DNA of 64,000 nucleotides from Vampirovibrionaceae bacterium NZW_1234 (GTDB taxonomy: Bacteria; Cyanobacteriota; Vampirovibrionia; Vampirovibrionales; JAGQHJ01), in assembly GCA_041697335.1 (NCBI GenBank), contig JBGUGD010000007.1:1-64000 (forward strand), written 5' to 3'. Of this stretch, positions 919 through 59,613 are shown in pieces. Made by a program: the position numbers and the translations under genes. The notes under the pieces were generated by a model. That model saw only the letters and a list, made by a program, of their open reading frames with translations, was not told where the DNA came from and made no database searches. The stretch's first letter is position 1. Each line of letters starts with the position of its first letter.

Positions 919-1995
919 CTACGCCGGTAAATCGTTTTTCAGGATATCGTCCAGGGCGCGCCCAAAGTCTGCACGCACCTCCTCATCGCTGCTGCTGAGC
1001 AGATCGGCGGTGTAGCTCTCTTTTTTAGGAGAGACTTTACCTTCTAAGAGGGCACTGGCATCCACGTTTGCGCTGCCGCCCAATTCCTGGCAGACCAGAC
1101 CTTCCATTTTGTAGTCGTTGTTTTCTATGGTGTGTATCACGAGCGGGCGATTAAAAATTTCCGGGCAATACTTTTTTCCATATTGGAATAGCCCGTCTTT
1201 TAGGCGCGTTAACGCAGCAAATTCCCGGGTATCGACAAACCCGTCGCGATTGCGGTCGACGGTTTCAAACATCGTTGCTAGGCGTGCTCGACTTGAATGG
1301 AATTTAGCCGCAATATTATCGGGAACGGTAATAGAAGACACGGCTTGTTTGACATCCGCCATCATATCTGCAACGTAGTTGTCCACGCCGCCGTGATCGT
1401 TGATGTCCTCGACAATCGCCTGATTAATCATCTGTTTGCGCGCTGCATGATCATCCAGAAGTATGTTTTGCTCTGTTTCAGCGTCTGGTGTGTCCGCGTT
1501 ATGGAGGGCCACTTTGTTTTTGAAGTGATCGGCAAAGCTATACTTCGTTAATGTGAGAATAAACGTCATTTGTGCCTGAATCATCTTCATATAGGTTTTT
1601 AAGTCTTTTTTTCCCAGATGATGCATGCTCAGGAATTCTTCCTGAGCGAGGCCTTTATTAGGGTTCTGTGCAAAGCCCCGGATGTGTTCCTTGGAAAAGG
1701 CGAGCAGGTCGTGTCGGTAGTGATCACTGGGTGGTGTGTCGATGCTTAGGGGGCTTGTCGAAACAGGCGTAAAACGATAGGTGGGTAAATTATTTGTTAG
1801 CAGTTCCGGGCATTTTTGAAGGAGAACGACGCGACGCTGTCCCGCGTTGGCCCCATACCAACCCGGGCCGTATTGTTCGGCCGTGTATTGTTTGCCTGAA
1901 TAGGTCGGATTTCTAGAGAGGGCTCCGGTAATCAACATCGATTTCCACTTTCTCTGTGCTTGTGATCTGGTGGGGCCGAATTTAGTATCTTTCAA
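919..1995 (-). CDS. hypothetical protein with one EF-hand Ca2+-binding loop
   Basis: 358-aa ORF; canonical 12-residue loop DRNRDGFVDTRE; TTG start, in-frame TAG just upstream; N-terminus MKDTKFG. Confidence 0.7.
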   Translation of the reverse strand: MKDTKFGPTRSQAQRKWKSMLITGALSRNPTYSGKQYTAEQYGPGWYGANAGQRRVVLLQKCPELLTNNLPTYRFTPVSTSPLSIDTPPSDHYRHDLLAFSKEHIRGFAQNPNKGLAQEEFLSMHHLGKKDLKTYMKMIQAQMTFILTLTKYSFADHFKNKVALHNADTPDAETEQNILLDDHAARKQMINQAIVEDINDHGGVDNYVADMMADVKQAVSSITVPDNIAAKFHSSRARLATMFETVDRNRDGFVDTREFAALTRLKDGLFQYGKKYCPEIFNRPLVIHTIENNDYKMEGLVCQELGGSANVDASALLEGKVSPKKESYTADLLSSSDEEVRADFGRALDDILKNDLPA

Positions 1996-2257
1996 CCATA
2001 CATTCTATTTCTAAATAGTATGTGTTTCTCAAGCTTTCAAATTGCTTGGAAAGCCTCGATCAGTTTCATTTCGTAACAAAGCGTATATTGATACGGGCTC
2101 AGTGGGTTGTTTGTCATGATGTGTCAGCGAGGGGGGAGTCAGATATATATCAATAAGTCACTGTCAAAAGTTTGGCTTGACGTGTTTTAAGCCAAGCATC
2201 CTTTTCATAGTTATAGAAGTGGTGATTGTTGTACACGTTGGGCAAGGAGTATTCGGG

Positions 2258-3718
2258 ATGAGATTAGGAACGTCATTTTCATATGGTCATCTTCAAGCAT
2301 ATGGCACGTCTCAAACAGCTGTTCATTTTGGGCAGACCCCTGTCGACGAGGGGATTCCTCAGGCTGAACCACAGCCAAAAAAGCCGCAAGATACTCCTGC
2401 GGTGGACAAACCCAAGGCCAAAAGTATGTGGCGTTGGGCCTGGCCGACGGTGGTGGTGGTCTTGGCGACCTTGAACCTCCTTCAGGCACGCCACACGCTC
2501 AGTAAAAGTACGGATAAGCCGACTCCGTCAAAACCGACGGCCAATCTGGTTCAGGACCAGGCGGGGGCAGCGGTTTCCGATGCGAAGGAAGTGGTGACCC
2601 TTGAGGACGGCACGGTCAAAACCGAAGTTACCCAGCGCGCCGAATCGGGAGGGAAAATCGTCACCACATCGTTAAAAGAACCCAGCGGCGATGTTCGCAC
2701 CGAGCGCGTGGAATACGGTGAAGACGGCAAACGCCTGTCATCGGTAATGGATTTTGAAAATGCCAATTTTAAGCAGCACAAGGAAACCCAGTACTTTGCC
2801 AATGGCGGTGAATCTGTCATTCGTGACAAAACACAGATGACCAATGGTAATTATTATGAGACCACTCGCGAGTATACGCCGGAAGGGCGTCTCTACTCCA
2901 GCCAGTCCGTCTCAAAAACAGCCGACAGAGGGATTGAAATCGTCAAGCAGGAAAACTCCCGCGTACGTTCCAATGTGTGGACTACACGGTATCACCAGTC
3001 CACCAAGGAAATGAAACACGAAGTGTTTGAACATGTCCCTGATGGGGAGGCACAAAGCGGGGAATCCGCAAGGGAAATAAAGCAGTTGGTCCTGCGGGTG
3101 ACCCAAAAGTATCAGGCCAGCCCTGTTGAATCGTTTTCGCCCGAACAAGTCGATTTTGCAGCTTTTTCTCCGTCCCTTGGCAAATATCCGGATTTGAAAG
3201 GCCAGGATTCACAACAGGCAAAGCCATTGGAGCACCTCTGGGAATCTTTCCAGGGGGGACGTCCCCAGCGGACCAATCTGATGAAGTATTCCCCGGACAC
3301 AGGTCAAATCACCGAGCAGGTGACATCCACATGGTCGCCGAATGTCGAGACCGGTCGCGTGCATTACAGTCAGGAAAAAACAACCTACGGTCCCGATAAA
3401 AAATCCTTCACCGAGCGTACCCGAGCCGAAACATCCAGTAATGGCGGTATTATTTATATGGAAGACACGGCCACGAAAAGCAGTACCAGTTCGCATTGGT
3501 TCGGTATTCGGAAACAATATGACAGTCGCGGCTACCATCTCATTGAACGATCAAATTACAAAGAGTATAGTCTTGGCCGCTATAAAGACGGCAAGATCAG
3601 CAAGGAAGAATCCATTCAACGGTATTCCTCTTTCGGGAAAGACCCCATTCAGACCGAGACCCGGACACATTATTGGGATGGCCGTGTCGAGACGACCGCG
3701 ACGTCAGCCCAGAAGTAG
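2258..3718 (+). CDS. membrane-anchored hypothetical protein with beta-hairpin-type repeats
   Basis: AGGAG RBS before ATG 2258; one TM segment WAWPTVVVVLATLNLL; C-terminal T/E/Y/G-rich units (EYGEDGK, QYFANGG, EYTPEGR, TYGPDKK, HYWDGR). Confidence 0.7.
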   Translation: MRLGTSFSYGHLQAYGTSQTAVHFGQTPVDEGIPQAEPQPKKPQDTPAVDKPKAKSMWRWAWPTVVVVLATLNLLQARHTLSKSTDKPTPSKPTANLVQDQAGAAVSDAKEVVTLEDGTVKTEVTQRAESGGKIVTTSLKEPSGDVRTERVEYGEDGKRLSSVMDFENANFKQHKETQYFANGGESVIRDKTQMTNGNYYETTREYTPEGRLYSSQSVSKTADRGIEIVKQENSRVRSNVWTTRYHQSTKEMKHEVFEHVPDGEAQSGESAREIKQLVLRVTQKYQASPVESFSPEQVDFAAFSPSLGKYPDLKGQDSQQAKPLEHLWESFQGGRPQRTNLMKYSPDTGQITEQVTSTWSPNVETGRVHYSQEKTTYGPDKKSFTERTRAETSSNGGIIYMEDTATKSSTSSHWFGIRKQYDSRGYHLIERSNYKEYSLGRYKDGKISKEESIQRYSSFGKDPIQTETRTHYWDGRVETTATSAQK

Positions 3719-3725
3719 CGTCTGT

Positions 3726-4616: not shown

Positions 4617-4792
4617 ATTGCTCCTTGCAACCCAGATGGTTTGGGCTATTTGCTCAAAAGGACCCGATAGTTAGCATACTGGAGCTTGTTGTCCCAGACA
4701 TTCCCCTACCCTGGCAATTCGGTTTTGTGGCAAACGTTTCCTGACGGTATTCATTGATTTAGAAGGCGTTTTAAACCTCTAGCAGAGAATGC

Positions 4793-9781: not shown

Positions 9782-11632
9782 CTACTCTCGCCGACGCATT
9801 CGGGCCTGCGTGATTTCCAGCGCACGAACAGGGTCCAGAAAACCGGCGCCCTGATCCCGTTCGGTGTAGCGCCTGTTTGGCGTGGCGGCTTCGCGCAGAA
9901 TGGATTGAATGTCATCAAAACTCAAATTGGGGTTCATTTGCAGCATCAGGGCCACCACCCCGGACAAGCGCGGCGCGGCCACGGAGCTACCGCCGTTGAT
10001 ACGACTGAATCGGCGCATAATCGGTGTTTCCAAATCATCCGCCGGAATAGCCACCGTGGGGTTCCACCGGCCATCCCCCCGGCCGGAGTGAAAGGCAATG
10101 GTGTCATCGGCATTGTTATCCGGTGTCCCTTGGGCATTGGCTGTCGCGGTTCGTAACACATGCGAGCTTTTGGCCAGGTCGTTAAAACTCCATCCCGGCA
10201 GGATGGGATCCAGACTGGCATCCGGTGCCGTGTTGCTGCTGGCAATCACAATGACCCGACCACTTTCGGCAGCCTTTCGAGATATGTCACGCCATCGTTC
10301 CAGGGCTTTCTCGTCCTCCCTTCCGCCATCCAGGGCATGGCGAATGTAGCGCATAATGGCCTGGTTTTCCGTGTCGCCGTCTTGCCGGAACCGGAGAATC
10401 TCCCGCGTCAATTGGGGGTATCGGTCTCGCTCGGGTCCCTGAAGGTGCCCCTGAAGATACTGAAATAAACTGGCCGCACTGGCTCCGTCGGAAATATTAA
10501 TTAGGCGCTCGGCTGGGTCGTTGCGTTTCATAATGGCTTCGACGCCGTCGCTAAATTTGTCTATACCATCGGCTAAAACCTGTCTGAGATGGGCACCCAG
10601 GCGTTCCGGGTTTTTATTGAGCATTTCTTTTTCGCGGACCTGCTCAGCCCGAATGGCATCCAGCCGGGTTTGTAGGGATTTCACAGTCGGGTCGGCCTGC
10701 AGCTCCTCGGGTGACACTGGCTTGCCATCGCGAGCTTCGGACAGTTCCTTTTCCCGGGCTTTCATCGCCTTTTCAATAGGATACATTCGGTTTCTGAAAT
10801 TGATCGGTCCCGATTTTGCCAGCGGCGGCGTCATCCCTCGGGAGCTGACACCGGGTGCGATGCCCACATCCTTGTTGTCCAGCATTTCGGCGACTTGTCC
10901 GGCATGATCCCACCGGGTCCGCACCCCGTCTTCCACGTCCTTGGTGTCTTCCAGGATGACGGCTTTAATTCCGGCCCCGGTAATGGGTTTGCCGTTGGGG
11001 TCCACAAATTTTTTATCGGCAATGGCCTTCCTCAGCCGGTCGGCGTAGGCTTGGGTATTCTCCTTGGCCCGGGCTTCAAAGTTTTTCTTGAGGGCCTTGC
11101 CCAGGTCTCCGGCGAAATGATTGTGGGGCATATTGTATCCCAGTCCCAGGGCTACGTCCTCGTTGGCAAAAATAGAGCCCTCTCGCCCATCCAGCAGACG
11201 ATAGCTTCCATCCGCCCGGACCGATCCGACCTCGCGTAATTTGGCCTGATCGCCGTTACCCACCAGAACATACAACGTGCCATCCTTCGCCAGTACAGCG
11301 GCTTCCCGTCGGCCGTTGATCTGAACGCTGGGATCGCCGATGGTGTCTTTTTCCGGAATCGAATCTGCCGAAATCACCCGACCTTCCTTGGGCTTAGGTT
11401 TCACCACGCTGCCTCGTGCCGCCACTGGGGTAAGCGGTTTTGGGCTGGGCTTAGGCGTTTCGCCGGGCAACGGCACGTCGGAAAACGCCACCAGGCTAAA
11501 ATCGTCCTCCTTCGACGAGGCCGGGCCTGGCATCGATTTGCCGTTTGTCGCTGATATTTTCAGTAGGGTCGGGGAACCTAAAATGGCGTTTAACACCGCC
11601 TGAGGCACGCCTTTGCCCAACTTATCGAACAT
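9782..11632 (-). CDS. divergent subtilisin-like serine peptidase (S8) with N-terminal extension
   Basis: GAGIKAVILED (acidic residue), DHAGQVA (His), ASSN (oxyanion Asn), NGGSSVAAPRLSGVVALMLQMNPNL (Ser), QGAGFLD; start set at MFDK behind GGAG (ORF track starts at 11659). Confidence 0.82.
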   Translation of the reverse strand: MFDKLGKGVPQAVLNAILGSPTLLKISATNGKSMPGPASSKEDDFSLVAFSDVPLPGETPKPSPKPLTPVAARGSVVKPKPKEGRVISADSIPEKDTIGDPSVQINGRREAAVLAKDGTLYVLVGNGDQAKLREVGSVRADGSYRLLDGREGSIFANEDVALGLGYNMPHNHFAGDLGKALKKNFEARAKENTQAYADRLRKAIADKKFVDPNGKPITGAGIKAVILEDTKDVEDGVRTRWDHAGQVAEMLDNKDVGIAPGVSSRGMTPPLAKSGPINFRNRMYPIEKAMKAREKELSEARDGKPVSPEELQADPTVKSLQTRLDAIRAEQVREKEMLNKNPERLGAHLRQVLADGIDKFSDGVEAIMKRNDPAERLINISDGASAASLFQYLQGHLQGPERDRYPQLTREILRFRQDGDTENQAIMRYIRHALDGGREDEKALERWRDISRKAAESGRVIVIASSNTAPDASLDPILPGWSFNDLAKSSHVLRTATANAQGTPDNNADDTIAFHSGRGDGRWNPTVAIPADDLETPIMRRFSRINGGSSVAAPRLSGVVALMLQMNPNLSFDDIQSILREAATPNRRYTERDQGAGFLDPVRALEITQARMRRRE

Positions 11633-11903
11633 ACGAGACTCCATAGCATCACTGCACACACACCCGCAGCTACCTATATAAAACCCATCAACCCCCTATT
11701 CGATGCCAATCCAATAGCAATATTAATACAATCCTTAGAATCGCATGGCGTTTAAAAAGCGCCAGACACCTGTGAGCATGTTGCCAATTTGTTACAAAAC
11801 GCATGAATTTTTTGTATTTCTATTTTATTTTTGACTTTATGTTGTATAGTAATGGCTCTGATGAAAAAAATAGGCTATTGGGGTGCTCTCGAATCGTCCA
11901 ATA

Positions 11904-13457
11904 ATGACCGGTGTGATGCTCGGGCCCGTGGGGCATTCATGGCCCTACTCAAATGGTGGAGCCTATTTGCCACCTCATTCTTTCCTGCCTCATCCGGCCT
12001 ACTCGGGATATCCCCCATTTAACCCGTACAACAGACCATATTTCCCTTATTCTTATCCACCTGTGTATGAGCCAAAAGCCTATACGCAGACCAATACTGC
12101 TCCTCAAGCGGTGCTCAGCCGGAACCCGATAGGCTCTTCTGCTGCATCTTCTGCATTTGCCCAAAAAAAACTTCTGTCTAGTCCCACTCAGCCTGCATCA
12201 CTGAATGCATCGGAAACCATTTTGACGGATGGCATGGCTGATAACATAGACAAAAATGTAAAGCCCAACTCCAAAACCTTGTTGTATGCCGGAGGAGCCC
12301 TTGCACTCTCCGCTGCCGTTATAGGTGGAATTCTGTATGCACAGCGTACCCAGGCTAACTCGAAGGTCGAGAGTAAGAAACCGGTTTTGCCCTTGTATAA
12401 ACTTGAGGATTTTAAGGTCCCCCCAGGCCTGGAGACCCCTGAAAAACGCCGTAAAAAATCTGTTGAGCTGGCCAATCTCATCTATCCTGAAATTATAAAA
12501 CGCTATGAGAAAAATCCAAATTCAGCCGAATGGGCTCATGAAGTTAATGAGATCTTTAATAGCCTGCTTCGGAGCCGGGTATACGACAAAGGGCGTGTCA
12601 ATTTTATTGTCAATTATGGGATATTTGTACCAGGCGAATACGGCGGTCGCTATGAGCCAGCTTTGAAACCCAAATATGTAAAAGATACTTATTTAAGCAA
12701 TATGGCTTCTCTGGAGTTAATTAGCTATGCCGGTCTCATCAAGTTCAATAAAAGTCATGTTCAAAAGGCTGTATCCCAAAGTGAGGCTAATATGCCCTGC
12801 TTTTACCTGGGTCAAATTGAAATCAAACCTTCTTTAAAGCCCAGTGACGATGAAGGAAAAAGCAAACTGTATAGTTTGATAGTGCATGAAACTAACCACT
12901 TTCTCTTTGAGCTAGCCAATCACCCGCTTAAGATGCGAAAGGCTCTGGAAACAATTCTCCAAAGTCCGTTTAAGAAAGCTCTTGTCTTGGATGATTGGGA
13001 AACAATGCTGTTCAACCAAATCTTAGCTCATTACAAGTTAGAAACGATTCCTAAGGATGCTAAGCTCTCTCAAGAGAGGGTGGAAAAGTATTGGCAGGTG
13101 TTTACGCGTCTGGCCTCCGATCCCACTCATAAATATCCCTTAATCAGTCAATGGAAGGACAAAGACATTATTTTTAATCAGTGTCCTCGGGACAAGTTAA
13201 AAGCCCTTTTAAAAGTGAAATATCTGAATGAATATGAAGCCTATTTGACCTACAAAGAACGCTTTCGTTCCGAGAACTGTTCAGCAAAAAAAGTTTTTTT
13301 ACACGACCTGGTATCCGGCCTTCGTGCGATGATGTTTCGGGATGTCATTGATTTCGTGGAAGCTGAGATCCTAAAACTGCCTGAAGATCAACGACACAAT
13401 CTTGCACAAAAGGAATCTATTCTTGTCCGTCCAGAAAAGGGAAATGATGCCTTATGA
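11904..13457 (+). CDS. hypothetical membrane-anchored protein with HExxH zincin-like motif
   Basis: Pro/Tyr-rich N-terminus, TM segment LLYAGGALALSAAVIGGILYA, LIVHETNH, downstream NEYEAY as possible third ligand. Confidence 0.6.
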   Translation: MTGVMLGPVGHSWPYSNGGAYLPPHSFLPHPAYSGYPPFNPYNRPYFPYSYPPVYEPKAYTQTNTAPQAVLSRNPIGSSAASSAFAQKKLLSSPTQPASLNASETILTDGMADNIDKNVKPNSKTLLYAGGALALSAAVIGGILYAQRTQANSKVESKKPVLPLYKLEDFKVPPGLETPEKRRKKSVELANLIYPEIIKRYEKNPNSAEWAHEVNEIFNSLLRSRVYDKGRVNFIVNYGIFVPGEYGGRYEPALKPKYVKDTYLSNMASLELISYAGLIKFNKSHVQKAVSQSEANMPCFYLGQIEIKPSLKPSDDEGKSKLYSLIVHETNHFLFELANHPLKMRKALETILQSPFKKALVLDDWETMLFNQILAHYKLETIPKDAKLSQERVEKYWQVFTRLASDPTHKYPLISQWKDKDIIFNQCPRDKLKALLKVKYLNEYEAYLTYKERFRSENCSAKKVFLHDLVSGLRAMMFRDVIDFVEAEILKLPEDQRHNLAQKESILVRPEKGNDAL

Positions 13458-15661
13458 AAACCCAATTTGCGTATTTCACGTTGAACCAACATCGTCATTT
13501 GAACTTTTCTCATGGATTAAATTCGGAGACGACTTTGGCCCACAACCGGATTAATCCTCGCCTTTCTGCCGATCGGTTTCAACAGAAAGAATTATCAGAC
13601 AAGAGCAGCTTCAAACCTCGCTTTTCCGGGCAAACCAAAGAGTATTACTCCAATGCAAAGAAATCACTGTCCCAAGTTCGTCAGGAGATTGAAGATTTAA
13701 AGCGTCAAATGAATCAGCTGGATAAGCCAACGCCCCCACAAGTTCCTAATAAAAAAAGTTTTTTTGAAGAACTCTTTAGCGGTTTATTCAAGCCGGGTGA
13801 TTATCCGGGAGATTCTGTTTATTATGATGCCTGTGTTCCAATGAACTCAAGTTCTGATTCGAGCAGTGAGCCTGATGATGACTGGAAGTACGATTATGAT
13901 GATGCTGACTATAAGCGTGAGTTAGCGATCTATAAGAGCAAGAAAGCCAATTTGCAAAAGAAAATCCAGGAAAAGTTTCAGGCGATTGCGGGTATTGAAG
14001 AACAACGAGCCAAGCTTAAAACCATTCGGGATAAAACGGCTCAGACGACCCGGTGCCCGAATCTAACACCAGAAGAGCTTTTGGCCTTAGCTGAGGGGTT
14101 TGCAACTCAGTTTCAAGAAGTTAAAGACGAGCATTTTTTAACTTTATACCCATTACGGAGCCGACCGGGATTAATAAGTTCAATGAGAGAAGCTGTTAAA
14201 ATTGATTTAGGGTCAGGCTCTCCAGTAGCGCTTTTCCTAAATGAGGGGATTGAAGAAACCCGCAATAACTTGAAACCGGATGCTCCGTTGTCGGCGAAAG
14301 TAGATGCCTTGAATCGTTTTTACTTGCTGGAGGCGGAGGTTGATACCTTTCTAACGGATAGCAAAGCTTTATATCCCAAATTTTTCTCAGAACCAGCAGT
14401 TGAACTAAAAACAGCAGCATTACACGCCATGATGGCTGAGCCAAAGATCCGCCCGGAGAATTATAAACAATTACTCGAAGACACTTTTTGGGGTAAGAAT
14501 GTGGCTTTAAAAAAGATAGCCATGCGTGGGATTCTAAAGGAGCTGACTTCGCCAGGATTTACGCTATCCAATAAAATGGACTTGCAGATTGCCATTTTAG
14601 GGAAATATGAAAAATCCGATTTTGAGCTAAGTGGGTTAGCCCAAACCATAAAACAAAAACGGGAGGACTTAGGGCACTACAGACCACTGGATCAGTTTGC
14701 TGCATCTAAGAAGATTGCGGAAAAGTTTATTGGAAACCCGACATTGGAAAGGACTCTGAAGGGTGCATTAAATGTTTATTACAACAGGTTGGCTGATTAT
14801 TATCAAGATAATAACCGCCTGATTCCACTGACAGGGGCGAATTCGCTAATGTTGTTGGAAGGCCCTCCAGGCATTGGTAAAACAAAGCTCGTCAAAGCGT
14901 TTGCGGATGAAGTTGTTGGATCTCCAAACTTGATTCTCATTAATATGTCAAATATTTCTTCACTGCAGCAACTAAAGGACCAACTCCGTTCGAATGCTTT
15001 AACGCTGGATCCCTATGAACGACGTGTTAAAATGGCTGGGAAAGTCCTGTTTTTGGATGAGTTCCAAAGTTTGGAAGAGAAGAATCCAGCGGTTCAAAAT
15101 GAGATCATTAGTTTTCTCAAGCAGGTATTTAATCGGGAAAGTCATCCGGAATTTGATTTTAAGGACTCTATTGTGGCCGTCGCTACGAATAAGCGCTTAT
15201 CAACCCTGCCTGCCTTCCAAAGTGAATCTGCCTTACCTATGACACAACGTATATACGGAAATAGCCAACGGGTGATGATGAATAATAATCTTCACGAGAA
15301 CTTGGGCGAAATTGTGGATCGCTTTGTGTCGGATAAACTTTATAAAGACTCAAAACCTGATATGAATATTGTTGCCATAGATGACGATGCCAAGACTTAT
15401 TTAAAGCGGTTTCTTCGTAACGTCTTTCCAGATAATTCTGGCGATCAATGTGGTCGCGTGGTGATTGGTGAGATTGTTAATGAGATCATTTCGGCCATGA
15501 ACTGTCAGGAGGGCTTTACTTATACAGCAGCTGATGAATTGACCATCCAAGCTGCGCCTAATTCAAGTGGGTTAATCGTTCGCAAGAATCTCGTTCAGTA
15601 TCAAGGGAAGAGAGATCCATTTCACGTTACGTTTTCCGATTATCAAAGAAGGCGTCTATAG
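13454..15661 (+). CDS. AAA+ ATPase with ClpA/B second-domain-like module and N-terminal coiled-coil/acidic region
   Basis: Walker A GPPGIGKT, Walker B VLFLDEFQ, FDFKDSIVAVATN (compare Clp D2 VDFxNTIIIxTSN), IDDDAKTYL; ATGA overlap with the upstream gene. Confidence 0.8.
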   Translation: MKTQFAYFTLNQHRHLNFSHGLNSETTLAHNRINPRLSADRFQQKELSDKSSFKPRFSGQTKEYYSNAKKSLSQVRQEIEDLKRQMNQLDKPTPPQVPNKKSFFEELFSGLFKPGDYPGDSVYYDACVPMNSSSDSSSEPDDDWKYDYDDADYKRELAIYKSKKANLQKKIQEKFQAIAGIEEQRAKLKTIRDKTAQTTRCPNLTPEELLALAEGFATQFQEVKDEHFLTLYPLRSRPGLISSMREAVKIDLGSGSPVALFLNEGIEETRNNLKPDAPLSAKVDALNRFYLLEAEVDTFLTDSKALYPKFFSEPAVELKTAALHAMMAEPKIRPENYKQLLEDTFWGKNVALKKIAMRGILKELTSPGFTLSNKMDLQIAILGKYEKSDFELSGLAQTIKQKREDLGHYRPLDQFAASKKIAEKFIGNPTLERTLKGALNVYYNRLADYYQDNNRLIPLTGANSLMLLEGPPGIGKTKLVKAFADEVVGSPNLILINMSNISSLQQLKDQLRSNALTLDPYERRVKMAGKVLFLDEFQSLEEKNPAVQNEIISFLKQVFNRESHPEFDFKDSIVAVATNKRLSTLPAFQSESALPMTQRIYGNSQRVMMNNNLHENLGEIVDRFVSDKLYKDSKPDMNIVAIDDDAKTYLKRFLRNVFPDNSGDQCGRVVIGEIVNEIISAMNCQEGFTYTAADELTIQAAPNSSGLIVRKNLVQYQGKRDPFHVTFSDYQRRRL

Positions 15662-15662
15662 T

Positions 15663-17006
15663 ATGAGAGCCATGGTTACACCTTCGAGTTTGTTTCAAGT
15701 TGTCCCTACTTTTTCAACCCGGCATTGTTCAGAATACATACCGGTAGTTTCACAGGACTCTAGGGCTCTTTCGCGTCTACGAGCGACAATGTCTAAGGGT
15801 GTTCTTTTGTTTGGGGCTGATCAAGTTAGTCTTTCGGATCAAATAAAACAGAATGCGACGCGCAATGTCCGAGCGTGGGAAATTGTCCGATCCTTTTTGC
15901 AAGTTCCAGAAAAGTTGATGACTGCCTCTCAGCCATTCAATGGTGCTTTGAATCAGTCATCAACATTGGGTATTCATAAATTATTACCGTATATCCCGAT
16001 GCTAAAGCGGTTTGCCTTGGTTGGGGATGTTTTAGGTCCGATTTTGGCCCTTGTCGGATTTAATCATGACAATTCTGTTGCCTTAAAAAGTCATAACCAA
16101 TTGCTTAAAAATCATAAGGATGTCTTAGAGAAGTTTAAAGCAGTTAATACGCAATTGAATACTTTATCCACCCTCATCCAAGAAAGTCACCAGAAGTTGC
16201 ATACGGAATTAACTGCTCTCCGTAGAAGAATTGATGATGTCGAAGGTCGAGTTATTCTTCTTCAGGACAGTGATTTAGAAGCAGGCTTGATGCATATGAC
16301 TGAAGCCTTTTATTGGTTGAAGAAACTCGGAGAAGCTTCTCAAAGCATGGGGCCGGGGGTTCATAATGAACAAAAAGGTTTTTCTGCATCATTGAATAGA
16401 GCGAAAGCCAGTTTGGCGAACGCAATCAATAAAAGCTCAACATTAGAAAAACGTGTCGATGCTAAATTTAATTATGCTATCTGCCACGCATTATCCGGAG
16501 CAGAAGATTTGGCCTGTCAGCAGCTTGACAGTGCCTTGCAGGACATTAGCCAGGAGCCCACTGGGAATAACTATATTGCTGCAGCTCAGTTAGTCAATGC
16601 ATCACATGATTCTCAAATCGCAACATTATTTACTCGCTTGGCCTTATACAAAGCTGTAAAAGCCGATAAAGACGAGTTTGGCCATGAGTATATTGCCTCT
16701 GCCATAGGGTATTACAAACTGGGGGTGGCGATTGCACAGGAGTCCGGCAAACCTGACTTGCAAAAATCCGAAGATGCCCTGAATAAAGCATTAACCATAG
16801 GAGAAAATATTTTTTCGACCAACCACCCGTTCTTGGCTTTGACCTGCAAATCTTTGGGGAGTGTCTTGATAAACCAGAACAAGCGGGCCGAAGCTTTGAG
16901 CGTCCTGAAAAAGGGTTCTGCCATTGCAGAAAAAACTTTAGGAGCAAGTCATAAATTGGCACTGGAAATAAGACAACTCCAGAGTTCTTTAGATTCATCT
17001 AACTAA
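15663..17006 (+). CDS. coiled-coil protein with C-terminal TPR (kinesin-light-chain-type) repeats
   Basis: NHPFLALTCKSLGSVLINQNKRAEALSVLKKGSAIAEKTLGASH; hydrophobic helix LVGDVLGPILALVGF followed by heptad coiled coil; starts 1 nt after the upstream stop. Confidence 0.72.
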   Translation: MRAMVTPSSLFQVVPTFSTRHCSEYIPVVSQDSRALSRLRATMSKGVLLFGADQVSLSDQIKQNATRNVRAWEIVRSFLQVPEKLMTASQPFNGALNQSSTLGIHKLLPYIPMLKRFALVGDVLGPILALVGFNHDNSVALKSHNQLLKNHKDVLEKFKAVNTQLNTLSTLIQESHQKLHTELTALRRRIDDVEGRVILLQDSDLEAGLMHMTEAFYWLKKLGEASQSMGPGVHNEQKGFSASLNRAKASLANAINKSSTLEKRVDAKFNYAICHALSGAEDLACQQLDSALQDISQEPTGNNYIAAAQLVNASHDSQIATLFTRLALYKAVKADKDEFGHEYIASAIGYYKLGVAIAQESGKPDLQKSEDALNKALTIGENIFSTNHPFLALTCKSLGSVLINQNKRAEALSVLKKGSAIAEKTLGASHKLALEIRQLQSSLDSSN

Positions 17007-29029: not shown

Positions 29030-29347
29030 GTCGTCTAACTCCCCTGACTTTCCCGGTAGCGTAACCCGGGAAGCTGCCTCTGGGTTTTTTCGTCCCTCGG
29101 TTCCCTAAGGGTGCCGGGGGCACATGTACATCATACCCATATTTCAATGTCATGAGTATCCTGCTTCGGGCTAGACTTTCATACAGCCCATCGCGATAGC
29201 TGACCTGGGTGTTTTCGGTTCCGCAAAGAAGGTTTTGCCAAGGCGTCTCTGCTCATTCGAAGAGGCCATTCACCAAACGTAACACTTTATCATCTTTACA
29301 AATTCAGGTGCATTGATGGGAACAGATAGTGTCACGAAAGGAATTGG

Positions 29348-29809
29348 ATGATGATCCCTGCTGTTAAGTTTTCTGCCGCAACGTCAGCCCCCACTGTGTC
29401 TGAGCGTGGAACGATTCAACCTCACGTTCGCCTGCAATCCGATTTGGATGATCCGGATCAGTACTATGCCCGTGCCCGTCAGATTGCGCGTGAGAGTCAA
29501 GGCGCCGTGTCGGATGTCGACTTTCCCATTGGCAGCGATGCCGCTGAGCAACTGGGAGAATTGACCGGTTTGGCCAATGGCCGCTTTAAGAGTGCCGTTG
29601 ATGTTTTAAAACAGATTGGCGATCTGGCCGGTGGTTTTGTGAACAGCTCTGACGATAAGGACGATGGTCAAACTCTCCTCAGGCAGCTGAAAAATCTGGG
29701 CGTCCCCCTGCCGGATTTGGCGGCCATTATGTCGAAAGGCAAAGCATATGAAGAACTGATCCTCAATGCCCTGGTGAAGGCTGCTAAACTCTCTGAGGGA
29801 CAAAAATAA
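29348..29809 (+). CDS. hypothetical protein
   Basis: 153-aa ORF with AAGGA RBS; N-terminus MIPAVKFSA. Confidence 0.65.
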   Translation: MMIPAVKFSAATSAPTVSERGTIQPHVRLQSDLDDPDQYYARARQIARESQGAVSDVDFPIGSDAAEQLGELTGLANGRFKSAVDVLKQIGDLAGGFVNSSDDKDDGQTLLRQLKNLGVPLPDLAAIMSKGKAYEELILNALVKAAKLSEGQK

Positions 29810-40656: not shown

Positions 40657-41199
40657 GTGATCATACTTGTGGTGGATTAGTCCAATACTATTATTCACGA
40701 GTTTTTGAGTCTGTTTAGTGTGTATCACATTACTGGTCACAAGTGAAGCACTATGTAGACCCTGTCTAAAACCAAACGTCTGAATTTAATATCTTTTTTG
40801 GGGATTTTTATGATTTTTAGTTAGAGATTCGGTGAGTTCTAACAAAAATTATCCTTCCCTCTTTTTAGCAGCTTTTTTGCGGGAGAGTTACCCTTCTGGT
40901 TTCCTCCTTTTCTGGGCTAGTATCCTATTTTTGTAGGCTGTCTTTACTATCAGGCAAAAGACTAATTTCTTAATAAATATCTAATTATAAATAAACAATT
41001 ATTATTTCATCTTGATTTTTGAAACCTCCAAGACCCTCTTCCCTCCTGGATTATCTGTAGATTTGAGGTTCGAGCAAAGAAATTTGATACTGATTTCTGT
41101 TAAGTAGTTGAGGAATATCTGACACAAAAAAATAGATACCCGTTTTTATATAAACACGGATAGATTAAAGGGTTATTGGGCACTAGGTCGGAGGATGAT

Positions 41200-49752: not shown

Positions 49753-49773
49753 AGTGAGTTAGAAAAGGATACC

Positions 49774-52870: not shown

Positions 52871-54334
52871 ATGCGGATACAGTTGCGCCCGTATTCGATT
52901 CGAGGCATGTCGGGACAGAAACCCACAGTTTATGGTCCTCCGAACAACCGTAGCTCACTGACGCAATTTCAGGGTGAGTCTACACAGGAGGGGAATGAGC
53001 TTACACTGCTCCGACGCCATTTCTTAGCAGGTCTAATTGGCAGTGCCGTATTTGCTGCCTCCTTTTTTCCGAAACGCTCTACATCCAACGTTTCAGCCCA
53101 AGTTGTGTCACCGGAGCGAGTGCAGCTGTTAAAGCTGATTCAAGATCTGAAAATCCAAGAAAAAGCATTTCATTTTTTCGAGGATGCCCGAGATGAGACA
53201 AGCGGTCTGTATTTGGATCGGCTACCAAATCGACCTCTGAAGCCTGATGTCAAAAAAAACAACACGATTGCCAGTCTGGCAGCCACCGGCTATGGGCTTG
53301 CCCTGGATGTGATGAAAGCAAATCAGGGCTTTTTTAGTGCTCACCCGGGTGGTCCCAAGGCCATGGTGAGGCAGCGTCTTGAACAAGCGTTGGATACGGT
53401 TGAGAAGTTGAGTTTACCTCAAAATGGGCGGTTTTTGCCTCATTTTATCGATGTGCGCACACGGCAGAATCTGGCTGAGATTTCAACCGTAGATACCATG
53501 CTGTTCTATCTGGGGGCTTTGGCTGCTGGCCAGTATTGTGGGGGGAACACACTTCGTCGGGTTGAGCGGATGTTTCACCAGTTGGATTTTGAGATGATGC
53601 GAACACGGGCCAATGATCCGGTTTATCATAACAGCGATAATTTTACCCATGGCATCGCACCAGACAGACGTTTTATCCCTTATCATTGGGGCGGCCCTTA
53701 TTCAGAAGGGGTATTGCTGTTAAACCTGATGGCCTTGGCCTCGCCTCGAGTACCGGAAACGGTCTGGACAAAGGGTTGGGACCGGCGAAAGGCCTGGACT
53801 GTTGATAAACAATCTACTTTTACCAACACGCCTCTATTTACGTATTTTTACGCCCATGGGTTTCTTCCATTGAAAGGGTTCATGGATAGCCAGGGTGTGG
53901 ATTACTGGGAGGAAACTAAACGAGCCATCCAGATGCAAGTAGCCTATTGTCAATCGAAGAACTATGATCATGGCCTGTTTGGCCTATCAGCCTGTGATGC
54001 CCCGCCACCGCTGGGTTATCAGGGATATCACCCGGGTATTGATGATGGGACCATTGCGCCTCCTTCGATTTTAGCAAGTATTCCCTTTGCCGAGAAAGAA
54101 TCCTTGACAGCCTTAAAAAGGCTGAAGGAGTTAGATTTATTGAGTGAGCACTATGGTCCAGTAAATGCTTACAATGTTTTTACAGGGTGGAAAACAGGAG
54201 ATGCTCTAAGCATTGATGTAGGTAGTATGGCCTTGATGCTGGATGCTTATCAAGAAGGGACAATTCAAAAGCTGATGGGGCAAAATAAGATAGTTCAAGC
54301 CGCATTGCAACGAGCGGAATTCTTGCCCAAATAA
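52871..54334 (+). CDS. glycoamylase-like glycoside hydrolase (GH144 / beta-1,2-glucanase-like)
   Basis: SGLYLDR, ASLAATGYGL, PHFID, EISTVDT, YSEG, PLFTY, GLSACDAP..GY, DGTIAP, IDVG; N-terminal RRHFL plus hydrophobic segment. Confidence 0.78.
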   Translation: MRIQLRPYSIRGMSGQKPTVYGPPNNRSSLTQFQGESTQEGNELTLLRRHFLAGLIGSAVFAASFFPKRSTSNVSAQVVSPERVQLLKLIQDLKIQEKAFHFFEDARDETSGLYLDRLPNRPLKPDVKKNNTIASLAATGYGLALDVMKANQGFFSAHPGGPKAMVRQRLEQALDTVEKLSLPQNGRFLPHFIDVRTRQNLAEISTVDTMLFYLGALAAGQYCGGNTLRRVERMFHQLDFEMMRTRANDPVYHNSDNFTHGIAPDRRFIPYHWGGPYSEGVLLLNLMALASPRVPETVWTKGWDRRKAWTVDKQSTFTNTPLFTYFYAHGFLPLKGFMDSQGVDYWEETKRAIQMQVAYCQSKNYDHGLFGLSACDAPPPLGYQGYHPGIDDGTIAPPSILASIPFAEKESLTALKRLKELDLLSEHYGPVNAYNVFTGWKTGDALSIDVGSMALMLDAYQEGTIQKLMGQNKIVQAALQRAEFLPK

Positions 54335-55132: not shown

Positions 55133-55157
55133 ATGGGAGACAGGTCCGCTTTTACCC

Positions 55158-55342: not shown

Positions 55343-55708
55343 ATGCATGTTAAATTTAACGGGGTTATTTACATCAAAAGTAAGTCTCAGCAAAACGTTC
55401 AAGACCAGATTGAGGTACTGGAAAGACGTCATAAATATGTGATGGCGGTATCCACTCAGGTGGCAAACCATGTTGAAGGACGTGTGCTGACGGGGAAGGA
55501 TGCACGGAATCTGATTCGGCTTTTTGGTATTGAAATTATTCCTTCTGCCACGAAGGCCGAGAATGACAGTCGTATTGGTCAGCAATTAAGCCAGCGTTTT
55601 GGTGATGGTCTTTATGACCATTTGCTGCGTGCTATCTCAGCCTATGCTCTGCTGCATGAAGCAACAGGTCACAAAATTAAAACCATGCGCCTAGATAAAG
55701 AGGCCTGA
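55343..55708 (+). CDS. hypothetical protein
   Basis: ORF starting MHVKFNGVIYI (alternative ATG at 55319). Confidence 0.6.
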   Translation: MHVKFNGVIYIKSKSQQNVQDQIEVLERRHKYVMAVSTQVANHVEGRVLTGKDARNLIRLFGIEIIPSATKAENDSRIGQQLSQRFGDGLYDHLLRAISAYALLHEATGHKIKTMRLDKEA

Positions 55709-55853
55709 GATTTCTGAATACCTGTTGTGATCTACGGGAGGCAAATCTAACTGTCAGCGCTATCAAGGTTGAAGGGTCACAGGAGTTCAAGTGGTAATTT
55801 TGCGTGAGAATTCTGAGAATTCACAGACCAATTCAAGGGAGCAGGGCTTGTGG

Positions 55854-57104
55854 TTATTGAGGGTTGACTTTAGACACTTTGTCGGCTGATTCTTTAAACT
55901 TGGCCGTGCCATGAGCTTCTGCACGAAAATAATTATCCATTACAGCGATTCCCGCATCATGCAATGCCATACCCAACTGTGTTTGAAGGGCGGCTGTTCC
56001 TGCCACCATTGTTGGGATTCCCACTAGAACGGCTTTCCCGGAAAAATCCTTGCGACGAAATCCTTCCAAAAATACAGAAGATAAAGACGTTAACGTACCA
56101 GCTGCAATCAGTTTTGCGCCTATGGCATCAACTAAGGGATAGGCGCCTTCAAGAATTAACATTGGGATCCCTCCTAAATACATTAAGCAGGCGCCTACCT
56201 GGTTCTGGGTTGAGGAGGGTTTTAGGGCATCAGGTACCTCGGTACGTGTTCCTCTGAGGAATTGCCATAACTGAGAGCCATTACTTCCTATCGCTTTGGT
56301 TGTCTGTATGGGTGATATTAAAGGTTTTGAGAGGGTGACAACTGTTTTTCTGACGGTTTGATATTGATCAACAGCGATAAATTTTAAGGTTTCGAGCCCT
56401 CGGTGGAGATACGCCCTAGCGAGTTTGATATGTCGGTGGGATGCGTTTTCAGGGACAAGGGACCGAAGCGCGGAGATACTATAAAGAGGGCTCATATCTA
56501 GCTCTCGAGGTGTTTCTCCCGGATTCCGCTCAAAAAGGTTTCTGTTACGTCCTGCAACACCTGTAAACAGTAAGGCTTTGGCAACTAAAAATGCTGTTCT
56601 TACACCGACGCTACTGTGAAATGCAAGAATTGGTGCTATCGAGACCATCCCTAAGCCTGCCGCTGCCATAGAAGGTTGTTTTTTTACAAGGCCGGCAGAT
56701 AACCGGTTAATGCCTCCTGCCGTGAGTCCCACGGCAGAAAGGCCCCAACCTAGATCGCTCATTAATTTCTTCAGATCGTTCATATACCCTTTGGCTTGTT
56801 CTAATTGCGCCGGACTGATTGTCGTGATTTCGTCTTTAGGAGAGATTGCTGTGCTCTCTATTTTGGGCTGTGTTTTAGATGGTAATAACGCCGAGGTGCC
56901 TAAGAAAATTGCAGCCAAAATATTTGCAATTGGTGCAATCCATAAGGTTGAGCGCTTTAGCTGTGTGCCGGCTGAGTTCTTAGAGGCTATTGGGAGTGGT
57001 GGGCTATGAACTGTGGAATCTGATGAATCGCTTTTGAATCGTAAGTTCTGACTTAAAGTCAGCTGTTGGGAATGGATAGATGTTGATAATGGTTTAAGAA
57101 ACAT
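55854..57104 (-). CDS. hypothetical multi-pass membrane protein
   Basis: Ser-rich leader MFLKPLS...NLRFKS followed by several Gly/Ala-rich hydrophobic helices; start chosen at ATG 57104 (track starts at 57179). Confidence 0.65.
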   Translation of the reverse strand: MFLKPLSTSIHSQQLTLSQNLRFKSDSSDSTVHSPPLPIASKNSAGTQLKRSTLWIAPIANILAAIFLGTSALLPSKTQPKIESTAISPKDEITTISPAQLEQAKGYMNDLKKLMSDLGWGLSAVGLTAGGINRLSAGLVKKQPSMAAAGLGMVSIAPILAFHSSVGVRTAFLVAKALLFTGVAGRNRNLFERNPGETPRELDMSPLYSISALRSLVPENASHRHIKLARAYLHRGLETLKFIAVDQYQTVRKTVVTLSKPLISPIQTTKAIGSNGSQLWQFLRGTRTEVPDALKPSSTQNQVGACLMYLGGIPMLILEGAYPLVDAIGAKLIAAGTLTSLSSVFLEGFRRKDFSGKAVLVGIPTMVAGTAALQTQLGMALHDAGIAVMDNYFRAEAHGTAKFKESADKVSKVNPQ

Positions 57105-57190
57105 TTCTGAGTCTGTCCGAAGTTTTGCTCTGCTCAACTTGATAACGAATATCAAGAAGAAAATTGTCCAATTGGGCATCTATATTAAGA

Positions 57191-57259
57191 AATGTAACAA
57201 TGTGCTGTCAGGTAGACTCGCTCTTTTTTTTCAAAAGTTTTAAAAAATAGCGCAATAAT
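57191..57259 (-). promoter_or_regulatory. second copy of the motif pair ATTATTGCGCTATT + TTGTTACATT, upstream of the 57104 gene
   Basis: aatgtaacaa (57191-57200) and aatagcgcaataat (57246-57259) are exact reverse complements of the motifs at 55183-55192 and 55158-55171. Confidence 0.5.
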
Positions 57260-57324
57260 TTTCTTGTTCTGGTTTTGTTTAACAAGCCAATCCACTGACT
57301 CAACCCGATGGACATCTCTTAACA

Positions 57325-59613
57325 ATGCTGCGTATTGAACCTCGATTTGCAGGCACCTATATTTTATCTGACACTTTAAAACATGATTCGGTCTTGCCTG
57401 GCACGTTTCCTCAATTGATTCGAGATACCTATTTTTCGCTTACCCCCAGTCCCAGTGAGCGTCAGGTATCCGCTCGTATAACTCTAACCCAAGCCCGTCA
57501 GGAGCTTCAGGAAAGAACAGTTCGGACTTTGGCAGAGTTAATAACTTTATCTTCGGAATTAGAGGCTCGATGTGCTCCGCTCGTTACAGATGATGAGAAT
57601 ACTGCACAGCTCAAGCAATCCTTAACGGCTTTTCTTCGTACCTCTGAAAGAGCAGCAACTGCTCCAACTGTTTCGGCAGCCTTAGTATCTGTAAAGTCCC
57701 TACTGGAAGCTCCAGCGCATGCAAATCAAACCGAGTTCATTCAAGATGCAATCGAACCTGTCTATTTTGCTCTTAAGCCTATATTTCGGCAATTGAATCA
57801 ACGAACCTCAGGTGAGGAGCCATCGTTTGAGAATTCTTTTCGAGGACTTGCTCAACGGTTTTTTAATCAAGTGGAAGAGCTCTATCAGGCTCACGTATCT
57901 TTTAATGCTCTGTCGGATTTGAACTTAATGGTGGCTGACAACGTAGCTCGCGACAGAGTCTATCATCTAACTCCTGACTCTCTTGCATCTTTGCGAAAAC
58001 GAAAATGGAAGGATGATGTGGCGGATGTTGCCATAATCGGTGCTGGTCCTGCCGGGCTCTCTGTGGGACTTCATAGCATACAGAGCAACCTTAACACTGT
58101 GGTTTTTGAGGCTGGGTATGTGGCTCAAAGTTTTTCCGACCAGATGATGTTGCCTGTTCATGTGATGCGCACGAACGGTATTATGAGTTCCTTAACACGA
58201 GAAGGTGTATCTCCTCCGGAACTGGTGAACAGATATGGGCTACCTCGATTTTTGAATTCGTATCGCGAAATAAGTACCCGAGCCCGCCAGCGTCTTGCGG
58301 AATTATTGGGACGTGATTTGATTGGAAATCCACCGAAAGCCATTCCTGGGCAAGATGCTCGCGCAGATGTTCCTGCAGCTCGAAGCGAATTATTTCAGCA
58401 TTTTGATCACGTTGCCGAAGCCATTTCCTCTCATCCACGAGGCATTTTGTTAGAGCGTGCCCCAGTTGCCAAAGTTACCAAGGATAAACGAACGGGTTTA
58501 TTTCGTATTGAAACTCGCAAGGGCCATGTTCAGCTAGCGCGTAATTTAGTTGTTTCTGCCGGGCAAGTTGGTAGCCGAGGTGAATTCATCAAGCAGGCAG
58601 GTTGGCTGGAGGACTTTGCAAAGGCAAATCCCAGTGTCGTTTTACTTCGGACTCGGGATGATTTGGTTCGAGAAAATGTACAGGTTTTGGATTATCAGAA
58701 TGCCTGGCACCACAATAACCCTCGCAAAGGGCAATTAATTCTATGTGATCCATTATTAGGAAGTCCTGAAATGCGTGCAGTTATTTCTCGACTGCCAAAA
58801 GGGACAACTTGTGGTGTTATTGGCGGTGGGGAGTCTGGTGCTAAAGCTGTTATTGAGTTATTTAACCTGAATCCTGGTCTTCAGGTCCATTGGTTTGTCA
58901 AGGAACGTCCGCGTGGTGAACAGTTTCAAGTGCCTCCCAATAACACAAGCATTGAGACGATGACCCAGTGTCTTTCTGATCCGGATGCTGCAGAGCAGAG
59001 CCTGAGAGATTGGAAGTATCGCTATGGGGTACCTATTACTCCCCAAACCCTCAAGGATCTGGAAGAACAAGAAGATGCTGGTAAATTGACAATTTACGCA
59101 CTTGGAAAGCATTTTGACCCTTCAACAGTAGAATTAAAGTCAACCGTTGCTAATGGAACAGGCTCAATGTCTCTGGAAATTATTGCTAAAGATCCGTCAG
59201 TGATACGGCGGATAAGTCCTGTATCAAAACCAGGTATTACCTCATTGGCGTTGTCTCATCTCGACGGAGTATTGGTTTCAGCCATGGGTTATGATCGAGA
59301 CCGGCTTCACCAGCAAGGTTCTTTAACTCAAGAACTTAAGCGGGCTGACTTAGTCAATCATCCGGGGGCCTCATCGGACGTTAACCGAACTGAGCTATCT
59401 ATGGGGCAAAATGGGTTATGTGCTGAGGCTGATGAGAGTGTGTATACCTGTGGTGCCTATAATATTGCTATGGCGGCAGATTCTGCTATCTTTTCCATGC
59501 CCGTCAGAGCGCAAAACATTGTTAACGACATTCGGCGGCGTGGAAATTATAAGAAAGAGCGTTTTCAAGCTGTTCGCTTCTGGCTGCGACGTCTTATTCG
59601 GTTAAATGTATAG
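57325..59613 (+). CDS. FAD/NAD(P)H-dependent oxidoreductase, class B flavoprotein monooxygenase-like, with about 225-aa N-terminal extension
   Basis: VAIIGAGPAGLS (FAD), LVVSAG, GVIGGGESG (NADPH), LVSAMGY. Confidence 0.75.
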   Translation: MLRIEPRFAGTYILSDTLKHDSVLPGTFPQLIRDTYFSLTPSPSERQVSARITLTQARQELQERTVRTLAELITLSSELEARCAPLVTDDENTAQLKQSLTAFLRTSERAATAPTVSAALVSVKSLLEAPAHANQTEFIQDAIEPVYFALKPIFRQLNQRTSGEEPSFENSFRGLAQRFFNQVEELYQAHVSFNALSDLNLMVADNVARDRVYHLTPDSLASLRKRKWKDDVADVAIIGAGPAGLSVGLHSIQSNLNTVVFEAGYVAQSFSDQMMLPVHVMRTNGIMSSLTREGVSPPELVNRYGLPRFLNSYREISTRARQRLAELLGRDLIGNPPKAIPGQDARADVPAARSELFQHFDHVAEAISSHPRGILLERAPVAKVTKDKRTGLFRIETRKGHVQLARNLVVSAGQVGSRGEFIKQAGWLEDFAKANPSVVLLRTRDDLVRENVQVLDYQNAWHHNNPRKGQLILCDPLLGSPEMRAVISRLPKGTTCGVIGGGESGAKAVIELFNLNPGLQVHWFVKERPRGEQFQVPPNNTSIETMTQCLSDPDAAEQSLRDWKYRYGVPITPQTLKDLEEQEDAGKLTIYALGKHFDPSTVELKSTVANGTGSMSLEIIAKDPSVIRRISPVSKPGITSLALSHLDGVLVSAMGYDRDRLHQQGSLTQELKRADLVNHPGASSDVNRTELSMGQNGLCAEADESVYTCGAYNIAMAADSAIFSMPVRAQNIVNDIRRRGNYKKERFQAVRFWLRRLIRLNV

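Follow-up and report, generated by a model that had tools for sequence, protein, structure and literature searches.

A short Arg-Phe leader on some 300 proteins of a Vampirovibrionia genome: a candidate export tag of a second, flagellum-derived type III system

The stretch of DNA analysed here, termed the window, comprises 64,000 nucleotides of Vampirovibrionaceae bacterium NZW_1234 (contig JBGUGD010000007.1; C13:1-64000 of the source genome G000, which has 3.70 Mb in 41 contigs and is 94.75% complete). Public sequencing runs that contain DNA of this genome carry the labels hot spring or microbial mat. An earlier note on the window had proposed that several of its proteins, mostly orphans, begin with a short leader ending in F-G or F-x-G, which might act as an export signal. 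Our analysis sharpened this leader to a tag of the form [P/V/L/I]-R-F-[G/S/A/Q], which on balance probably directs export by a second type III system of the genome, one that derives from the flagellum, is non-motile and has a sigma regulon of its own. New here are an upstream DNA motif linked to the tag, a second export gene set with a sigma factor, and tagged spare copies of enzymes; a literature search, which left subscription journals largely uncovered, returned nothing on the tag, the upstream motif or a paralogous export system.

Genes were called with a purpose-written simple caller, which gave 3026 genes with approximate starts, single ones of which may be wrong. The tag model was built by expectation-maximisation and yielded the consensus [S/A/P]-[V/P/L/I]-R-F-[G/S/A/Q]-[S/G/A]. 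A score of at least 6 was reached by 360 of 3026 N-termini, by 61 of 3026 shuffled N-termini and by 27 of 2339 body segments. As the N-termini lie far above both the shuffles and the body segments, about 300 of the tagged proteins are genuine, which is about one protein in ten. Among residues 2-60 of 2473 proteins RFG occurs 134 times where 29.8 are expected, and the same holds for PRF (70 vs 14.7), LRF (69 vs 21.6) and VRF (62 vs 19.6). The leader in its original loose form was partly a matter of chance: FG alone was found 592 times against 413 expected, and F-x-G shows no trend with position across residues 1-150. Its Arg-Phe core is the part that stood, and the genome-wide motif discovery with shuffled controls that had been suggested finds the tag clearly commoner in real N-termini. 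A more stringent test was restricted to the 1132 genes with an ATG start and a ribosome-binding site, in which the strict pattern gave 101 matches among the N-termini, as compared with 3 in the protein bodies and 12 among the C-termini. Synonymous codons are mixed across 144 RFG sites, so that selection acts on the protein, and 318 tagged proteins represent 280 families. With back-translated DNA patterns searched in six frames, the tag could not be told apart from controls.

The Phe of the tag is placed at residue 7-50 (median 21); 144 of 301 proteins have it upstream of position 20. Ser, Pro, Thr and Arg abound in the leader around it, and acidic residues are scarce (3.3% vs 9.2% in controls). 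In agreement with the suggestion of a non-Sec signal, a Sec-like N-terminus with a hydrophobic core within the first 35 residues was found in 2.3% of 311 tagged proteins compared with 18.8% of 2129 others, and a Tat-type twin Arg followed by a hydrophobic stretch in 2 of 308. The pattern D-x-[VI]-x-F-[SG] is overrepresented (23 occurrences vs 4.7). Two other candidates were rejected. A FlgM-like motif, D-x-V-x-[IL]-S, is not enriched (12 vs 9.9), and the idea that the tag is a strand of a small shared domain was dropped, since one structural model places it before the first strand with a predicted local distance difference test value (pLDDT) below 50. A fold search with the same modelled protein returned generic helical hairpins only (best Z 8.7), and a homologue search with it gave no match at E<=0.01.

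Orphans are indeed enriched among the tagged proteins. A Pfam scan at a threshold of 1e-8, which covered 118 of the approximately 318 tagged proteins, chosen mostly from tag-rich loci, left 84 (71%) without a match, as compared with 22 of 66 untagged neighbours (p=1e-6). About five of the 34 Pfam-matched cases with a score of at least 6.5 look like false positives. Most of the recognisable enzymes among them duplicate a housekeeping enzyme and have the tag as an extra piece ahead of it. In detail, an untagged paralogue exists for the tagged PurA, LDH/MDH, IDH, MalQ, ClpP, FtsH-like protein, RtcB, CinA, aminotransferase, DAGK and ALDH. The tag lies outside the paralogue-aligned part in 34 of 39 such proteins and ends near the start of the untagged paralogue (offset -3 to +24) in 18 of them, while many tags precede long linkers. 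For the tagged PurA, the 119 other top homologues cover just 80-83% of residues 1-140. A cluster of PrkA, SpoVR, DUF444, a second PrkA and ClpP (L087:836-10961, i.e. C5:195836-205961 of the genome) was also noted, in which both PrkA proteins, DUF444 and ClpP score as tagged.

As the earlier note had stated, the window itself is devoid of a secretion apparatus, no secretion gene being present among its 49 scanned open reading frames (ORFs). The dedicated secretion route that was postulated nevertheless found a candidate elsewhere in the genome, which contains two FlhA and two FliP genes and a complete second flagellar-type export set beside a true flagellum. Second copies of FlhA, FlhB, FliP/Q/R, FliI, FliF, FliE and FlgC/F/G were identified by in-genome BLAST; the FliH-, FlgB-, FliO- and SctQ/FliN-like genes of this set were assigned via NCBIfam. 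The set is spread over four contigs: C32 carries flgF, flgG, flgB, flgC, a lytic transglycosylase gene, fliE, fliF, a gene of unknown function, fliH, flhA and fliI; C8 a sctQ/fliN-like gene followed by fliO, P, Q and R; C29 flhB and a sigma factor gene; and C30 fliJ together with a short hook- or rod-like gene, which has orthologues in flagellin-less genomes. In G000 this short hook-like gene has only one match at E<=1e-5, and no separate long FlgE that would belong to the true flagellum could be found. The lytic transglycosylase of the C32 operon (C32:18041-18655, in L003) has a tag-like motif near residue 11, which is absent from two Gastranaerophilales orthologues. FliG, FliM, FlgH, FlgI and FlgK are single-copy, MotAB is represented by two pairs, and flagellins are present. 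The second export set is likely to be motorless. The gene at the fliG position gives a weak FliG_M lead, an hhalign probability of 5% against FliG and a poor model (pLDDT 50.6). The genome also has two secretins, both located, as judged by their neighbours, in pilus-type clusters apart from the export genes. A CesT family search gave no match anywhere, controls included, and hence had no power.

For a needle, tip or translocon there are compositional candidates only. A family of five paralogues of about 110 residues (C8:98161-98493, C7:123788-124123, C10:10475-10804, C10:11173-11502 and C10:180208-180507), two of them with an upstream motif, has a homologue in L071; these proteins could be the subunits of a filament or needle belonging to the second system.

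Tagged genes are mostly the first of their transcription unit, as the upstream gap is below 30 nt in 6.6% of them as opposed to 23% of the others. A gapped search upstream of them recovered GCAA-N9-TTGA at 25 of 273 tagged and 8 of 1551 untagged genes, and the motifs obtained split into two classes. Class B, KCAM-N9-TTGA-N4-7-TT, lies 43-176 nt ahead of the gene start at 43 of 329 tagged but only 26 of 1980 untagged genes (p=8e-21). The reverse-complement background amounts to 29 matches, and the untagged genes are at this background. The association is also seen among paralogue-free genes (21 of 198 tagged vs 18 of 1131 untagged). In two genomes of other families, G001 and G108, four of six class B sites precede F-G leaders, so that the link between motif and tag is conserved across families. 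Over all 121 genomes the class B pattern gave low counts, and 30 loci from f7, f8 and f9 show no tag, most of these loci being inside ORFs or having no gene behind them. Class A, RKCA-N17/18-GTTTTTAT, rarely occurs together with the tag (at 4 of 329 tagged and 72 of 1980 untagged genes) and has a sharp spacing, with 92 genome sites at 17 nt as compared with 3-24 at other spacings. The genes behind it encode proteins rich in Gly, Asn, Gln and Ser, and 71% of 75 of them are free of Cys, as opposed to 17% of 1835 controls; these features are reminiscent of harpins and translocators. Position and fixed spacing suggest that both motifs are likely promoters. One gene with an upstream motif adjoins fliI2, and C39-like domains were noted in 3 of 11 untagged proteins with an upstream motif.

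A candidate reader of these motifs is the divergent sigma factor encoded behind flhB2 on C29. It is one of two paralogues which are approximately 25% identical to the FliA candidate of the genome, and it scores far below the FliA/WhiG cut-off. Its family tallies are nearly those of the second FlhA (FlhA2): it is found in 0 of 25 genomes of families f5 and f10, and a second sigma match (E<=1e-20) occurs only in one subclade of FlhA2, termed subclade II below. Class A sites outnumber those of a reversed-pattern control in G000 (92 vs 2), in f3 (27-88 vs 0-6) and f4 (65 and 65 vs 5 and 11), and also in f2 (8-30 vs 1-8) and f7 (7-27 vs 0-9), and are at or near the control in f5, f6, f8, f9, f10 and f11. 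Of 30 class A loci from two f7 genomes, roughly a third lie ahead of plausible orphan genes, and many are noise.

These family numbers refer to a survey of 120 other Vampirovibrionia genomes grouped into families f1-f11; the genomes are incomplete and close kin are not independent. An FlhA match is present in every family save f5 (0/23) and f10 (0/2). FlhA2 was found in all genomes of f7 (25/25), f8 (8/8) and f9 (11/11), whereas flagellin and MotA were found in none of these 44, and FliS in none of four flagellin-less genomes. FliP2 is single-copy in 55 of 55 f7 genomes, and FlgC2 is present in 25 of 25 f7, 10 of 11 f9 and 0 of 8 f8 genomes. Family f7 clusters with named Gastranaerophilales in the FlhA tree. 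FlhA2 of G000 shares 62-67% identity with records most of which bear the name Gastranaerophilales or Melainabacteria, which puts the genome into the class Vampirovibrionia; Vampirovibrionales is its likely order. The FlhA trees were calculated with 57 rows and then with 28 of those, redundant outgroup and Gastranaerophilales rows being dropped by hand. The FlhA2 sequences fall into a single clade (support 100) on the side of the flagellum, to which neither SctV nor the flagellar FlhA of this class belongs; a forced grouping of FlhA2 with SctV was not rejected (approximately unbiased test, p-AU 0.086). The clade is composed of subclade I (f6, f8, f9, f11) and subclade II (f1-f4, f7), and the tag, the class A motif and the second sigma factor were seen only in subclade II, which bears out the lineage restriction that had been claimed for the leader.

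Further observations were made on the relatives. In other classes of the phylum (f12, f14, f24, f26 and others) mostly two FliP copies occur, with 40-53% identity to FliP2. Most f7 genomes have a weaker second FlhA2 match, which in G109 (C9:81065-81682) is a C-terminal FlhA2 part inside another long frame and is possibly a stand-alone FlhA-C-like protein. In the f6 genomes G040, G046, G079 and G107 the flagellar FlhA match contains two TAG stops, which may reflect alignment overrun or decay, and FlhA2 is open. The f9 and f6 samples (L033-L039, L135-L174) contain many orphans with Ser/Thr/Asn/Pro-rich N-termini and no Phe motif; they are candidate substrates of the subclade I apparatus.

In this reading the system would work like an injectisome, yet it falls outside both the injectisomes and the motile flagella. 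It shares with the injectisome, or non-flagellar type III secretion system, homologues of the sctJNQRSTUV core, candidate substrates with unstructured N-termini and, in several lineages, a gene set in which no motility parts were found. It differs in that the C32 operon keeps the rod genes flgB, flgC and fliE, in that FliF takes the place of SctJ, and in that no secretin was found linked to it; moreover, FlhA2 scores 586 bits where the SctV cut-off is 692 and goes with flagellar FlhA in both trees. Abby and Rocha 2012 (PMC3459982), whose injectisomes include the Myxococcales systems, take flgB, flgC and fliE as markers of the flagellum, so that a rule based on rod-gene markers would class the second set as a flagellum. 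It differs from a motile flagellum in that neither flagellin nor stator was found in the FlhA2-keeping families f7, f8 and f9, in that FliS was not found in the four genomes mentioned, and in an FlhA2 score of 678 bits against a cut-off of 772, as compared with 863 for the other FlhA of G000. A recent preprint states, in its accessible part, that about 75% of Gastranaerophilales genomes keep only genes like flhB, fliI and flgG, for which a secretion role is postulated (bioRxiv 10.64898/2026.04.24.720558). What is described there is a retention of flagellar genes, whereas the genes found here make up a paralogous clade of their own, present side by side with a true flagellum, and the available text mentions neither a tag nor a promoter or sigma factor.

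For the explanation as an export tag the following course of events can be envisaged. The divergent sigma-28-like factor behind flhB2, or its paralogue, would read the class A and B motifs; class A genes would then provide untagged, harpin- or translocator-like structural substrates and class B genes the tagged cargo. Bipartite motifs of fixed spacing also stand ahead of scattered genes in the sigma-28 late regulons and in the hrp-box and PIP-box effector regulons, from whose consensus the class A and B motifs differ. The acid-poor, Ser/Pro/Thr-rich stretch would serve as an unstructured signal of the kind usual in type III export, docking would take place at the Phe-centred motif, and the cargo, spare enzymes of tricarboxylic acid, nucleotide, NAD and lipid metabolism and proteases included, would be delivered to a prey or host cell. 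Type III export signals usually have no consensus. A short export motif within an unchaperoned N-terminus, the gate recognition motif, is described for early flagellar subunits in the accessible text of PMC8983047; the tag is similar in this respect, and fails the spacing rule of that motif, its Phe so often being placed before residue 20. As to the reader of the tag, a chaperone-free docking at the D1-D2 cleft of FlhA2 is the hypothesis that we favour, though taken by itself it is rather unlikely; a hypothetical chaperone could serve instead. The flagellar chaperones FlgN, FliS and FliT dock via a Tyr in this cleft of FlhA, for which Asp456 and Leu461 are essential (PMC5932034, PMC8527033, as far as the available text goes). 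One aromatic residue with a hydrophobic residue upstream of it is common to these motifs and the tag. In subclade II FlhA2 the cleft Asp is kept and the Phe459 position is mostly aromatic, the Leu461 position being Ala, Ser, Thr, Glu or Val.

Several results weigh against this explanation. The ligands known from the cleft, according to the parts of these papers at hand, are Tyr-centred helices on chaperones, whereas the tag is a Pro-rich, Phe-centred element on the cargo itself. For the second set, neither a needle or tip nor an outer-membrane ring could be identified. The heads of the apparatus operons have no upstream motif, and of the 399 tagged genes that follow an intergenic gap no more than 156 have even the relaxed motif. 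The cargo comprises oligomeric or membrane-anchored proteins such as ClpP and the FtsH-like proteins, as well as the PrkA and DUF444 genes of the PrkA-DUF444-SpoVR cluster, all of which are odd for type III export. The co-occurrence within subclade II is a single evolutionary event and not a repeated one. In addition, subclade I has the apparatus and shows no excess of the tag in the samples analysed (tagged orphans vs shuffled: f9 11 vs 9.7, n=128 from 540 kb; f6 7 vs 9.4, n=138 from 400 kb; f8 3 vs 3.0, n=41 from 160 kb), and in f5, which is without the apparatus, one of four patterns exceeds the shuffles (8 vs 2.5, n=103 from 400 kb). Even within subclade II the tag is weak in small samples (13 vs 6.7 in G030, 7 vs 4.7 in G004 and 5 vs 3.9 in G017), and orphans around Gastranaerophilales FlhA2 loci gave 2 vs 4.6 (n=46). 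The tag thus looks like an addition within one subclade which was greatly expanded in G000; since it is undetected in subclade I and weak in the f2, f3 and f7 samples, not every version of the apparatus needs it.

The same points feed the first alternative, that the tag acts inside the cell as an adaptor-read degradation or sorting mark of a stage-specific set of proteins (feeding or resting) under the same sigma factor and unrelated to export. Cytoplasmic enzymes and protease complexes among the cargo fit this idea, which accounts better for the proteases, and it would be in line with apparatus operons that lack the promoter motif and with a subclade I that has the apparatus and no detectable tag. 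We nevertheless consider it unlikely, as 71% of the scanned tagged proteins are without a Pfam match, the tag excludes Sec-like signals, the sister class A regulon resembles harpins and translocators, and the sigma factor is both encoded behind flhB2 and co-distributed with it.

Alternatively, the motif might be a cleavage site or a mimic of an organelle transit signal, cut after Arg-Phe by an M16-type or a host peptidase, which would be compatible with export by the second system. The Arg-Phe of the tag resembles the Arg-2 cleavage rule of mitochondria, and like mitochondrial presequences and plastid transit peptides the leader is poor in acidic residues, rich in Ser and Arg, and placed on duplicates of housekeeping enzymes. 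The close distance between motif end and paralogue start points in the same direction, and so does one model (pLDDT 62) whose confident region does not include the tag, which directly precedes the first strand. Eight M16 domain matches exist in the genome, one M16 gene being tagged and one having an upstream motif. The tag is, however, bacterial, its Arg is not kept in the leaders of relatives (AFKG, NFG), and many tags are followed by long linkers. The M16 gene with the upstream motif was found in 14 of 15 f2 genomes and 1 of 10 f3 genomes but in none of f4 and f7 at E<=1e-40, and altogether this explanation seems improbable.

It is very unlikely that the tagged proteins are exported by another route, whether through the true flagellum, through a secretin system (Tad or type IV pilus) or through a C39-type peptidase transporter. 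The flagellins, the two secretins and the C39-like domains mentioned above speak for such a route, but family f7 has no flagellin or MotA that could be found, the secretins are in pilus-type clusters, and the tagged proteins lack Sec and Tat signals, one of which secretin substrates normally need. Finally, an artefact of gene calling, composition or a DNA repeat is largely refuted, as in spite of starts from our own caller and the few apparent false positives the tag is an N-terminal feature even of the ATG genes with a ribosome-binding site, exceeds shuffles which preserve composition, has mixed codons and is accompanied at the same genes by an independent DNA motif.

Within the window, all nine leader strings quoted in the earlier note are present at the places given there. 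Five of the nine proteins pass with p<0.01 relative to body segments, two are borderline and two fail by score but are supported in other ways. The leader had not been seen on the housekeeping genes checked for the note; one housekeeping-type gene, that of a histidine kinase at 21476, passes (6.2, p=0.01) and is likely to be a false positive.

In detail, an EF-hand-like orphan (919..1995, minus strand) has a short leader TKFG (1975-1995) which fails with a score of 2.1; it is preceded by a class B motif, GCAA-N9-TTGA (2016..2048, minus), 50 nt ahead of the TTG at 1995 and with a weak downstream T-tract. The orphan at 2258..3718 (plus) carries the tag VHFGQ (2321-2335; score 7.4), then a hydrophobic segment, and has a class B motif upstream (2161..2191, plus; posterior 1.0). 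A promoter-like motif (11798..11829, plus; posterior 0.96) heads the 11904-13454-15663 operon, whose second gene encodes an AAA+ protein (13454..15661, plus) with the tag PRFSG (13616-13630; score 9.4) and whose third gene encodes a TPR protein (15663..17006, plus) with the borderline tag LLFGA (15804-15818; score 4.5, p=0.05). The small orphan at 29348..29809 (plus) has the tag VKFSA (29363-29377; score 6.9) and a weaker promoter-like motif upstream (29287..29318, plus; posterior 0.79). The Glycoamylase-family protein at 52871..54334 (plus) shows a borderline tag TQFQG (52961-52975; score 4.8, p=0.04), behind which an RR-x-F-L segment and a hydrophobic stretch follow, so that by its sequence it could be a Tat substrate. 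The small orphan at 55343..55708 (plus) fails with the degenerate tag VKFNG (55349-55363; score 2.2); a profile built from it and five other short-leader proteins recovers a protein with an RFS leader on contig C37, which aligns with it (E=2e-4). An orphan with hydrophobic segments (55854..57104, minus) has the tag LRFKS (57030-57044; score 7.4) and is faced by a weaker promoter-like motif (57239-57270, minus; posterior 0.56), and the flavin-dependent oxidoreductase at 57325..59613 (plus) has the tag PRFAG (57340-57354; score 7.3) and a promoter-like motif upstream (57249..57279, plus; posterior 1.0).

Upstream motifs are also found at untagged genes of the window: a weaker one (11677..11709, minus; posterior 0.62) precedes a subtilase-like gene (9782-11632), and a class A-like motif (41119..41150, plus; posterior 0.99) precedes an orphan (41200-43140) which was not among the nine. 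Apart from these, the window encodes a bacterial GRAS-domain protein (18359-19498, plus; PF03514, E 1.7e-32), a family best known from plants, and a pair of a haem oxygenase and a bacteriophytochrome kinase (30115-34244, plus) in a lineage that is non-photosynthetic.

Should the proposed function of the tag be true, a short motif common to about 300 proteins would open the recognition of type III substrates to direct testing, and a protein-injection route assembled from flagellar parts would be added to those described. It would represent a second origin of a secretion-only machine from a flagellum, and a living parallel to the intermediate that has been proposed for injectisome evolution. For the predation of Vampirovibrio it would offer an alternative to the type IV model (PMC4451040, accessible text), and the VirB4 family has no match in G000. 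As a tentative scenario, a duplicated basal body of the flagellum may have become a protein-delivery machine in Vampirovibrionia, independently of the injectisome; one subclade may have added a sigma programme and a hydrophobic-x-Phe-Gly address by which cargo docks on FlhA2 in the absence of chaperones; G000 may thereby move some 300 proteins, spare enzymes of metabolism and protein quality control included, into a prey or host cell; and the non-flagellated Gastranaerophilales of the gut may have kept the machine. This suggests that common gut Melainabacteria, which have the apparatus and no flagellin, may secrete proteins into a partner.

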